A DNA stretch of 64,000 nt from assembly GCA_013239625.1 (NCBI GenBank), contig MU053810.1:5674071-5738070 (forward strand), in the 5' to 3' direction. The position numbers and the translations under genes were made by a program. Below are positions 56,411 to 61,187 of this stretch, piece by piece; the stretch's first letter is position 1, and every line of letters begins with the position of its first letter. The notes below the pieces were generated by a model, which had not been told where the DNA came from, did not search any database, and worked only from the letters and a program-made list of their open reading frames with translations. The DNA comes from Lama guanicoe. Taxonomy: Eukaryota.

Positions 56411-56944
56411 AACATCATTTTTTTTTGTTTTTGCAAAAGTAATTCCCTTTCCACGCTTTACCCAGTGCCCTGCTCTCCAGATGGCAACCCCTTTTAGCAG
56501 TTTCAGTTGTATCTTTTGGTATTTACTCCTTGCCTCTAAATAACTGCTTAATTTGCTGCTTGAGTTTTCGGTGTCAGGCATTATGTGTTGACTTCCGACC
56601 TCAGTGAGTATTTAGCTTGTCTCCTGTATCTTTCTTCTCTCTCTCATCCCCGTGACCCTGCAGACATCTCGTCCTCCAGTCTCCCACCAGTTAAATCATA
56701 ATTTTGAGTGGTTCCATATTTCATATGTGTTATGACCATGTAAATAACATTTAAATGAGCCATGTCCTACACTGTCATTTCTTTCTCTTACATGTTTTCT
56801 TTGTGGTTTCTACGAGATTAATAATTGTGCTTTTTACTCCTGCTTAAGTTTTTATATCATTGGCACCAGTTTAGCCCCCAATTCTCCCCTGGTGTCTAAA
56901 GCTCCTCACAGTATATTCATATACCTACAGCAATCTCACAACTC

Positions 56945-57577
56945 TTTTTTTCCTGCCTCAGGTTTGTTTGTACAAATAGCACAGGTAGACATGAGCCCCA
57001 TGCAGACAGCAGCCCAGGGGTCAAACTAGTCCTTATATCCTCACATCAGTAGACGAAAGCCTCTACTCTGGAGCCTTTGTGGGGGCCTGGGGGCCTCTGG
57101 GAGCCTGAGCCTGAGCTGCAGCTGCAGCTATGGCCTTGGTCTGAGCCTTGTCCTTGGCCTTTGGCCGACAGAGCCTGAGACCCATGGCGATGCAGACACG
57201 AGCACGTTTCCCGAGCCTGGGGTGAGCAGTGTAGGCAGGTCAGCTGAGCTTGCGGCTGCTGCCCTTTGGGACCTTGGGCTTGACCTCCTTGGGCTTTCCG
57301 AGAGCCTTGACAGCCTCAGCACGTGAGCTCGTGGCCTTGGCGTTGTTCGCCTGCATCTTCTTCAGGCCCTTCTTGTTGTGCTTCTTGGCAAAGCGCGTGT
57401 TCCTCAGGAATTTGGGATCCACCCCCTTAAGAGATTTGTATCTTTGTGATCGGGGCTTTCTGATGCCGTTTCTGTGCCATTTTCGGGACTGGTTGTGTAT
57501 GGTGTGGTTCTTTGACTTGGCCATGCCTGCACCGGAGCCGGGAGATCCCGAATTGCCGGGGACCGGAAGAGAAAGAG
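56945..57577 (-). pseudogene. RPL29: Processed pseudogene of 60S ribosomal protein L29 (eL29), full-length mRNA copy
   Basis: 5' TOP tract CTCTTTCTCTTCC at 57577; ATG 57524 (MAKSKNHT..); intronless; premature TGA at codon 95 (57240-2, probably CGA>TGA); frame continues to native TAG at 57063-5; 3'UTR with AATAAA degraded to AACAAA; short A tail 56945-51. Confidence 0.95.
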
Positions 57578-58200
57578 CTCTTCTTTTTTTCATTGTAAGT
57601 TATCACAAGATGCTGAATGTAGTTCCCTCTCATATACAGTGGAACTTAGTTGTTTATCCATTTTATATATAGTAATGCATATCTGCTAATCCCAAACTCC
57701 TAATTTATCCTTCCCCCTCCCTTTTCCCTTCGGTAACCGTAAGTTTGTTTTCTATGTCTGTGAGTCTCTTTCCATTTTGTAAATATGTTCACTTGTATCT
57801 TTTTTTTTTTAGATTCCACGTGTAAGTGCTATCATATGATACTTATCTTTCTGTCTGACTTTGCTTAGTATGATAACTTCTAGGTCCATCCATATTTCTG
57901 CAAAAGGCATTATTTTATTCGTTTTATGGCTGAGTAGTATTCCATTGTATATAAATATACCACATGTTATTTATCCAGTCGTCTGTCAATGGACACTTAG
58001 GTTGCTTCCATGCCTTGGCTATTATAAATAGTGCTGCTGTGAACACTGAGGTGCATGTATCTTTTTGAATTAAGAGTTTCCTCCAGATATATGCTCAGGA
58101 GTGGGACTGCTGGATCATAGGGTAACTCTATTCTTAGTTTTTTAAGGAATCTCTATACTGTTTTCCTTAGTGGCTGCACCAGATTACATTCCCACCAACA
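57578..58200 (-). mobile_element. L1 3'-region fragment abutting the 5' end of the RPL29 retrocopy
   Basis: Same L1 3' motifs as 28268-28775 (aagttatcacaagatgctgaatgtagttccct, tttatggctgagtagtattccattgtat, cattcccaccaaca); lacks the terminal 3' segment and its own poly(A). Confidence 0.85.
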
Positions 58201-58553
58201 CAACTCTGCCATCCTGATCTTCCTTCTAGGAATGGCTGGTCTGTCCTGCTCCGGTCTGGCTGGTTCGTCTCTGTGCTGAGTGCACGTCTGTCGTTCTGGG
58301 ACAGCCCTTCCATTATCCTTGGGACGCCTTTTATCTTCTTTTTGGGTGGGAACCCCTTTTTCCTAGAGCACTTGAACTCTTTCAAGGTTTACCCTGTCAT
58401 TTCTGTCAACCACATCCTCTAATAGTTCCTTAGAAAGAGTATGTAAAAACTTTTTGAGACCCTGAATGTCTTAAAATCTCTTTAATCAACCCTCCCATCT
58501 AATTGATAGTTAAAGTGAGTATGGAATTCTGATGGGAGTCATTTCTTCCCAGA

Positions 58554-59910
58554 TTTTTTTTTAAATAAACATTCCATTTATTCACTTTCAAGCTTGCTCA
58601 AAGTGACAAGTAAAAAGAAGATATTATCCATCTTGAAAAAAAGTCACTATTATGACACAGAACAAAGAAAACTTTGAAGAAAATAAGACTTAAAATATCT
58701 ATTTTCAGACATATAGGGAAAGGGGTTTTAGGATTTAGGATTATATGCAGTACAATTTTACATAATCATATATAATGTCGGGGTCAATTTCTATCAAATA
58801 TTCCCATGCTCTGGAACTTTGTTACTCAGAAAGTGGCCTGACACCAGCAGCATCAGAGTCATCCAGAGCTTATTAGAAATGGTGGACCTCAGCCCCCACC
58901 TCCTACCTACTGAAATCAGAATCTGCATTTTAATTCATTCCTATGAGATTCACATACCTATGAAAGTGCGAGAAGCACTGACTGCACCAGGAAACCACCT
59001 CAGTAACCATACTCTCCTGGTGTCCTAGAACCCTGTTTGGTTTTTGCCTACTACATTTGACACATAAATTTTACATATCCATACACTGAAATCACGTTGT
59101 GTATAAATGATATAAAGGTATATATATTTACCAACATAGATCATCATGTAGTTAATTTTTTAAAAAGCATTTAAATATTTTATATGGTTCCATTAGGAAG
59201 AAAATATACAAATGTAAGTTTACACAGAAAGACATCTAGAAGTCTCTACTCCAAATATTAAGGGGGGGATCACAAGTTTTTTTTCTTAGTTTTCATTGTT
59301 TTCTAACTTTTTAAAAATAAGCACAAATTACTAGTATAGTTTTTAAAATAATAAAAGTTTAAAAAAACATGGAAAATTGAAAATGGGATAGAGCTGCATC
59401 AGGACACAGACGGTTCAGCAAGCCAAAGGCAATGCATTCTCTTGTATCTTGGATGGACTGTTGAAGCCCATAGGCTCCCTGGAGAAGCTGTGCTTTCAGG
59501 CGTAGCTCCTCGAAGGACTTCACTGAGCAAAGAGGGGAGTTTGGATCCCGCTGTAGGACTGCCACTTGGTTGGTGTTATCAACAAGGTTGCTTCTGATCA
59601 GCTTGTTGAGTAAGGATTGGGCGGCTCTGTCCTCTTTCTCTTCTTCGTCTGTCTTCTCTGCATTAGCATTGGTCTTGACAACAGCACCACTGGCATCTGG
59701 CTTGATTTTCTCTTCCTTAAGATTCAAGTTGCTCAGCGACTCGGCCGCCGCTTCCTGCTCGCCCACCGCCAGGGCGCACGAGTCGGTGGCCAAGGTGCCA
59801 GGCGCAGCTGAGGCGCTGGTGCTGGCGAGCTGGCCGGCCAGCGCGGCGCGATGAGCCATCCGCGATCCCCGACAACTCCGGCCCCGCCAACGGGGAAGGA
59901 AAGTCATTCG
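58554..59910 (-). pseudogene. DDX19B: Processed pseudogene of DEAD-box mRNA export helicase DDX19B, 5'UTR + first ~130 codons + non-coding 3' segment and poly(A)
   Basis: Intronless (L)ATDSCALAVGEQEAAAESLSNLNLKEEKIKPD..DRAAQSLLNKLIRSNLVDNTNQV..SVKSFEELRLK; AESLSNL/VVKTNANAEK match DDX19B rather than DDX19A; start ATG>TTG at 59791-3; ~5-nt deletion near 59470 and ~2-nt deletion near 59422; AATAAA at 58577-82 (minus), A tail 58554-62. Confidence 0.9.
58815..58985. mobile_element. MER5-like MITE carried inside the DDX19B retrocopy 3' segment
   Basis: accagcagcatcag..gagcttattagaaatg..cctactgaaatcagaatctgcattttaa..aaagtgcgagaagcactg. Confidence 0.7.
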
Positions 59911-60580
59911 CTCCTCCCAGAATTGTTAAGGCTCTTTGCTCCGTTATCACCTGGCTTCCAGTGCTGCTGTTGAAAAGTACAAGCATTTCAATTCCTGACA
60001 CTTTATATGGGACCTGCCTTCTCCTCTGGAAGCTTTTAGGTTTCTCTTTGTTTCCAGTGGCATGAAATTTATAAGAATATGTCTTGATACGGAAATTGCA
60101 ACCTTTGTACTGAACTCCCACCCCCGTTCGTTCAGTTTGGAAAATCGGACTCTTCTAGAATTTTTTTTTTCTTTTTACTTTGCTCTCTTGTGTTTGCTTT
60201 ATTCTCTTTTTTTTTTTCCCCCTGAAACTCCTGTTATTTGGAAGTTGAAGCCTCTGGGTAATTCTCTAGTTTTTATGCCCTTCTTCTCCTATTGTCCATC
60301 TCTTTGTCCTTTCTGTTTTACTCTTTAGACGCTTTCCTTAACTTTGTCTTCTAGACCGTCTTTTGAATTTTCATTTCTGCTGTTATATTTTTAATTTCCA
60401 AAAACTCTTTCTTATTCTGAGTTTTTAAATAGAAGTTTGTTCTAGTTTCGTAGATACAATCATCTCTTAGCTTTCAACTTTGGGTGTTAGTCATAGTTGA
60501 TTTTTCTGTTTGTTTTGGTCTCTCATGTTAGAAGTTCTCCAGGGAACACTGCTGTGCTCACATTGAAGAACGAGGCATCA

Positions 60581-60712
60581 GTCGGGAGGGCAGAGCTCAA
60601 TGGTAGAGCGCATGCTTAGCATGCACGAGGTCCTGGGTTCAATCCCCAGTACCTCCTCTAAAAATAAATAAACCTAATTACCTGCCCCTGCTGAAATAAA
60701 ATAATTAAATAT
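60581..60712 (+). mobile_element. Vic-1-type SINE
   Basis: tRNA-Ala(AGC)-like head, tail AAATAAACCTAATTACC; imperfect TSD AAGAACGAGGCATCA / AAGAACAGGCCATCA. Confidence 0.9.
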
Positions 60713-61187
60713 AAAGAACAGGCCATCAAATAATCAAAAAACTGGCAGCTCTGTGTTCATAGGTAGAGCTTGTCACCCTTATGCTTCCCTGAAGGACAAC
60801 CTCACTGGACCATCTACATAGGAAACCAGCAAAGTCATTATCTTTGGGTCTTTTCTATGTGGTGGTCAGATTCCCCAGAGAAGAATCTTCCATTTGAGTG
60901 CCTGGAGGATATAAACTTGGCTACCAAAATTCCAAGATGAGGAAGAAGGCTGGGGGCTCAACACTTAGAATCCTTTCTTTTCTCTGTCCCTGCTCTGCCT
61001 AGCATCTCCTGGTCAGATGCCTTCCATTTTGTCGGTTTTACATCACATAGGAAAGGGATGGCCACCTCTTGGCTTGATGGCTCAGAGGGGAGGTGGAGGA
61101 ATCTAACTATGAAAGACTCTTCACCAAATCTCATTTGTTTTTAGTCCCCCCTTCACCTTCTTCTTCAGAGGTTTTGTGAGCCTTCTG

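Follow-up and report, generated by a model that had tools for sequence, protein, structure and literature searches.

Shemesh et al. are said to have described retrocopies, in 2006, as archives of transcript isoforms. This archival role is accepted (PMC4772013, PMC5470649), and the truncation of retrocopies is normally found at the 5' end (PMC5470649). Previous studies described three systems that are close to the present one. The LCORL retrocopy of equids comes from an alternative-last-exon isoform, in which the terminal exon is separate and spliced, and it was amplified by segmental duplication (PMC10249811). Intronic polyadenylation with a composite terminal exon was reported in intron 19 of TOP2A (PMC9265003) and in intron 3 of CSTF3, the gene of CstF-77 (PMC3708835); these sites combine a weak donor, a signal within about 1 kb downstream and a short truncated product. 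The tailless retropseudogenes are made by L1, carry a target-site duplication and are 3'-truncated in comparison with the full mRNA (PMC5322556).

In our study, a processed pseudogene that probably records an old short transcript of DDX19B was found in the window, which is the whole stretch of 64,000 nucleotides analysed from Lama guanicoe (GCA_013239625.1, contig MU053810.1, positions 5,674,071 to 5,738,070). It is a clean case of a known kind of fossil and represents no new type of element. As in L1 processed pseudogenes, the introns are gone, a target-site duplication and an endonuclease-type site are present together with a possible tail remnant, the copy has decayed, and an isoform of the parent is recorded. 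Unlike them, the DDX19B copy is nearly complete at its 5' end and ends within an intron at a poly(A) signal. The LCORL case involves a separate terminal exon and amplification by segmental duplication, whereas the DDX19B copy shows donor read-through and was found once. The nearby signal and the short product are common to the TOP2A and CSTF3 sites and to DDX19B, the DDX19B donor may be weak as well, and the parent is, like CstF-77, itself an mRNA-handling factor. However, the TOP2A and CSTF3 isoforms were shown in RNA and are regulated, whereas the DDX19B isoform appears in the present work only as a DNA fossil and its intron 5 measures only 2.4 kb. The tailless retropseudogenes resemble the copy in their 3' truncation, their L1 origin and their duplication, but they end at internal A-rich priming sites with zero added bases (PMC5322556), whereas the DDX19B copy ends past AATAAA, in sequence that is not A-rich, and carries untemplated bases.

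The initial annotation had described a GC-rich 5' part, intronless DDX19B homology up to 59412, the hexamer GTCTGT, an AATAAA at 58582-58577 and a run of nine A's, and all of these were located where it had placed them. All parts of the unit given here are on the minus strand, apart from an internal repeat. The 5' UTR of DDX19B (59794-59911; clear alignment from 59898) is followed by the coding part of exon 1 (59737-59793), in which the ATG has become TTG at 59793-59791. Exon 2 (49 nt; 59688-59736), exon 3 (54 nt; 59634-59687) and exon 4 (136 nt; 59498-59633) are followed by exon 5 (59412-59497), which has 86 nt here against 93 in the parent and contains deletions of 5 and 2 nt that shift the frame. 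The parent introns 1-4 (6,915, 890, 586 and 283 nt, respectively) were precisely removed, all four exon junctions being exact at the GT/AG boundaries. Exon 5 of the parent ends at CDS base 389, in phase 2 of codon 130, so that the boundary at GAA CC stated in the initial annotation was correct. From here, the alignment to the parent continues without a break into intron 5. The unspliced donor GTCTGT (59411-59406) and a read-through stop TGA (59401-59399) together occupy 59399-59411, and, of the 2,424 nt of this intron, an initial stretch of about 850 is kept (58566-59411), which would have formed the 3' UTR of the template RNA. A repeat of about 160 nt (58820-58979), identified by its dispersed genome matches and presumably of MER5 type, was inherited from the parent intron. 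The AATAAA at 58577-58582 is the first of five in the parent intron 5.

The parent DDX19B was found in the same genome as the copy, on a different contig. Searching the genome with 59411-58563 returned the copy itself and one full-length match with 93% identity (G000:C7236:13812436-13813288), which begins at base 1 of DDX19B intron 5. The 38 other matches listed covered the internal dispersed repeat only and were all short. The prediction that this segment would match the start of the intron after the LAEP exon, repeat included, was therefore borne out. An origin of the non-coding part from host DNA was rejected, since the part aligns to DDX19B intron 5; this outcome and a different exon boundary were among those that would have spoken against the initial annotation, and none of them occurred. 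With 59910-59412 as the query, five separate exon matches were obtained upstream of the same place on C7236; a tandem paralogue at a distance of about 24 kb was matched less strongly, and one old copy was found on contig C8876. DDX19A was rejected as the parent: its identity is lower in all five exons, and its intron 5 is dissimilar and devoid of AATAAA. Human DDX19B chains of the PDB were matched by an orthologous camel copy, which is described below. The N-terminal pieces were assigned to no Pfam family, and Rfam, run over 56500-61000, gave only a tRNA-like match, outside the copy.

The old copy on C8876 (L013; G000:C8876:20475391-20475710) is an older DDX19B-type retrocopy in which exons 2-7 are spliced and exon 5 is joined to exon 6. 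Its identity is 72% over the matched part and 77-85% per exon; it also has no 3' exons nearby and runs into unrelated sequence. The short RNA was therefore not the sole form copied, as normal mRNA was copied too. Other young retrocopies were sought with the final DDX19B exons and the 3' UTR as the query; of the four matches obtained, none is a spliced copy according to the match table. At the DDX19A locus (G000:C7236:13781463-13785127), a near-perfect repeat of 1,347 nt and 1,198 nt identical to DDX19B were observed, which probably reflect mis-assembly or else a very recent conversion. Contig C53834:1-888 is identical to the 3' region of DDX19B.

The K2P distance to the parent was 0.054 +- 0.008 in the intron part of the copy and 0.038 +- 0.010 in the coding part. 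These similar values argue against a DNA-level event, in which an ordinary retrocopy would have gained intron 5 by recombination or conversion with the parent locus, or in which the unit would be an assembly chimera. In its favour, the sequence near the DDX19A paralogue is clearly disordered in the assembly; however, a single duplication brackets the whole unit and an independent Camelus ferus record has the same join of exon 5 to intron 5, and we regard this explanation as highly improbable.

The duplication claimed in the initial annotation (11 nt, 58543-58553 and 59911-59921) does bracket the unit, but its extent had to be revised. The best ungapped target-site duplication was found to be 16 nt long, the 5' copy at 59927-59912 (59912-59927) and the 3' copy at 58559-58544 (58544-58559) being identical at 13 of 16 positions. 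Across the window, with both strands counted (128,000 positions), these two alone reached this score. The duplication is preceded by TT, giving a TT/A-rich, TT/AAAA-like site of the kind cut by the L1 endonuclease, and the same site is present in paralogous L1 copies. The A-tail claimed at 58554-58562 was affected by this revision. The nine A's (58562-58554) are present, but six of them fall inside the duplication, and only about 6 untemplated nucleotides of T and A (58560-58565), half of them T, are left as a possible tail remnant. A longer duplication means a shorter true tail, so this line of evidence is weaker than had been claimed.

Old L1-like host sequence lies before the insert (59928-60496, by comparison with paralogous L1 loci) and after it (58290-58543). 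Among the 16 old-L1 paralogues compared, both flanks were matched in three. In one of them (L036) the flanks meet base to base, window position 59912 corresponding to 1116 and 58544 to 1115, and in the other two (L028 and L030) the flank matches are collinear and non-adjacent. The host L1 is continuous across the insert, as the initial annotation had supposed. Its assignment of the host gene to CACNB2 agrees with the next host exon (62250), which has calcium-channel beta-2 as its best match; the copy occupies the intron before this exon, in antisense orientation. The segment 59911-59899 resembles both the parent 5' UTR and the host continuation past the 3' duplication, so the exact start of the copy is uncertain by about 13 nt, and this double resemblance suggests a microhomology at the 5' joint. 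In the neighbourhood, a second processed pseudogene was observed on the minus strand at 57580-56950. It is RPL29-like (Pfam L29e) and of full length, codon 95 being an in-frame stop. A younger L1 3' fragment (about 58199-57581) harbours it in its A-rich end, and an A-rich motif resembling a duplication flanks it on either side. The Rfam tRNA match (60586-60657, plus strand, 43 bits) is, by its context, presumably the head of a tRNA-derived SINE.

The 3' end of the copy was found to lie at a specific place in intron 5. The homology to the parent stops 11-14 nt past the first AATAAA of the intron, which is at intron position 837, the others being at 1121, 1230, 1311 and 1354; an ATTAAA is found at position 484. 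Beyond the end point, the first 20 nt of the parent contain 4 A and the first 40 nt are 52% T; thus there is no A-run for priming, and a U-rich stretch follows. The template 3' end has the layout of a poly(A) site, that is, a position 10-30 nt past an intronic AAUAAA, U-rich sequence downstream and no genomic A-run. Positions lying 10-30 nt past an AATAAA make up only 4.3% of intron 5, or 5.6% if ATTAAA is included. The upstream exons are spliced and exon 5 is extended through its own donor, which is the layout of a composite terminal exon. The distance from the donor to the signal is 837 nt; intronic polyadenylation is described with weak 5' splice sites and signals about 100-1000 nt downstream of them (PMC9265003). 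Judged from the sequence of the copy and its parent, the end point strongly suggests cleavage and polyadenylation in intron 5, and the proposal of an intronically polyadenylated template was supported: exons 1-5 are spliced, the fifth donor is read through, and the copy ends just past the first AATAAA.

The same end point bears on a second explanation, in which L1 would have primed internally on a nascent RNA with introns 1-4 spliced, giving a tailless or partly processed retrocopy whose stop near the AATAAA is a coincidence. Tailless 3'-truncated retropseudogenes are known for many types of RNA, including mRNAs (PMC5322556), an intron is occasionally retained in retrocopies through incomplete processing (PMC2584115), and most of the A-run of the present copy falls in the duplication. 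In the tailless model, however, the target is complementary to the A-rich RNA site and joins it without any addition (PMC5322556). The parent end point is not A-rich and mismatches the start of the duplication, with about 6 untemplated bases between them, and a chance stop in the poly(A) window would occur in about 4-6% of cases. We therefore consider internal priming quite unlikely.

The donor of intron 5 was described in the initial annotation as donor-like GTCTGT. It does occupy the position of the intron-5 donor, but the parent has CC|GTATGT, and it is the copy that has changed, to C, at +3. This +3 A>C change is common to the window copy and the Camelus ferus copy. In pig, lemur, deer, dromedary and platypus, the protein models that continue into the intron carry YV, which makes A the ancestral base at +3. 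On a crude score, the parent donor of intron 5 agrees with the U1-type consensus at 5 of 9 positions and those of introns 1-4 at 6 of 9, a difference of one position. The substitution may be a further early mutation of an already dead copy, or it may be the cause of the read-through. In the latter case the template would already have carried +3 A>C, the damaged donor would have forced read-through to the first poly(A) signal, and the copy would preserve a vanished splice-defective allele. The sharing of the change by both camelid copies, with A as the ancestral state, favours such an allele, and a change in +3 to +6 on the shared stem has a chance of only about 6.5% (a rough figure). However, five other derived residues are also common to both copies, so that one more calls for no special explanation, a conserved gene should only rarely carry such an allele, and the wild-type donor is already the poorest consensus match of the five scored. 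A donor-mutant template is thus unlikely. In searches limited to short proteins, 51 of the 119 proteins have the motif; 13 end exactly there, two end in YVS (pig and Prolemur) and one ends in SVS. Short models ending at the LAEP codon were not counted as transcripts. The pig and lemur short models also have an aberrant second exon, and a short lungfish model clusters with a 519-residue full-length sequence.

The age of the insertion was estimated from a second copy. When the 46 C-terminal residues of the pig model were used as the query, the Camelus ferus predicted protein EPY77174.1 (P0078) was retrieved, which ends in AEPSVS like the window. Over 134 codons, five derived residues are common to both copies, six are found only in the window, two only in the camel, and two differ in both. 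The first ~31 residues of EPY77174.1 were located at C1724:5744997-5745098 (L050:1501-1602), on the contig and strand of the copy and at a distance of about 11 kb from it, which shows that the insertion is the same in both species. The insertion is therefore older than the split of the two lineages. The divergence would place the window in a camelid distinct from Camelus ferus, probably a New World one, and the split is dated to 11-25 million years (PMC4884201). The changes common to both copies are about as many as the later ones per lineage; on this rough basis, the age of the insertion may reach about twice that of the split. In EPY77174.1, named 'DDX19-like protein isoform 3', a short open frame at this distance of about 11 kb, on the same strand, is joined to the pseudogene; the record is most likely a gene-prediction artefact.

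The copy is dead and shows no sign of a function of its own. Neither camelid copy retains the start codon, and the window copy, with its two frameshifts in exon 5, has seven amino-acid-changing and four silent changes in 106 codons. The Camelus ferus frame is open to the stop; neutral simulation leaves the frame open in 11-33% of runs. A functional retrogene was thus rejected, as the ATG is gone in both copies, the window frame is broken and the open frame of the camel may well be due to chance.

The copy is best read as a processed pseudogene formed by L1 target-primed reverse transcription of a natural DDX19B intronic-polyadenylation transcript, a reading to which we give a probability of roughly three in four. 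The template, as the copy records it, was an RNA with introns 1-4 removed that continued beyond the intron-5 donor. The apparently weak donor CC|GTATGT would have been left unused and the RNA cleaved and polyadenylated 11-14 nt past the first AATAAA, exon 5 becoming a composite terminal exon; the position of the end point speaks strongly for this step. The L1 proteins would then have nicked the TT/A-rich site in the old L1 within the calcium-channel beta-2 intron. With the tail as the site of priming, reverse transcription would have come close to the 5' end of the RNA, and the 16-nt duplication would have arisen; the hallmarks are seen in the copy and the mechanism is taken from established L1 biology. 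We infer that priming took place on the tail and that the template came from a normal allele. The insertion took place in an ancestor common with Camelus ferus, in its germline or at an early embryonic stage, and the copy has decayed since, as the shared locus and the lesions indicate.

The parent, when read through the donor of intron 5, gives 133 residues ending in AEPYVS. The initial annotation had expected an isoform lacking most of the helicase core; this product contains none of it and stops just ahead of the segment encoded by exon 6, which we take, from general knowledge of DEAD-box proteins, to be the P-loop. In human numbering, it keeps W6/V10 and helix 54-67. W6/V10 of DDX19B are needed for CTIF binding (PMC8373075) and helix 54-67 is auto-inhibitory (PMC5998080). 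It is doubtful that mammals still make a conserved, regulated isoform from the intron-5 site, predicted to lower helicase output or to yield a 133-residue piece competing for CTIF. If it were so, the piece would keep both of these N-terminal elements without the helicase core, and the site might be likened to the intronic site by which CstF-77 tunes its own gene. DDX19A and DDX19B were absent from the examined supplements of a human immune-cell study, which list only differentially used sites (PMC5928244).

Retrocopies that archive isoforms and intronic polyadenylation are both known already, and the DDX19B instance was not found described. The literature searched, which lay outside most subscription journals and the poly(A) atlases, gave no description of the intron-5 isoform, and a retrocopy of any intronically polyadenylated isoform was not found by title or by the start of the abstract. 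The value of the copy lies in its record of a transcript. It explains the public Camelus ferus record EPY77174.1 as a pseudogene-based gene model, and it points to a general method, by which retrocopies that end in a parent intron just past an AATAAA would date intronic poly(A) sites without RNA data. It also provides a precise and testable address for a putative intronic poly(A) site of DDX19B; in the best reading, this site would have been active in germline or early-embryo RNA before the two camelid lineages parted.
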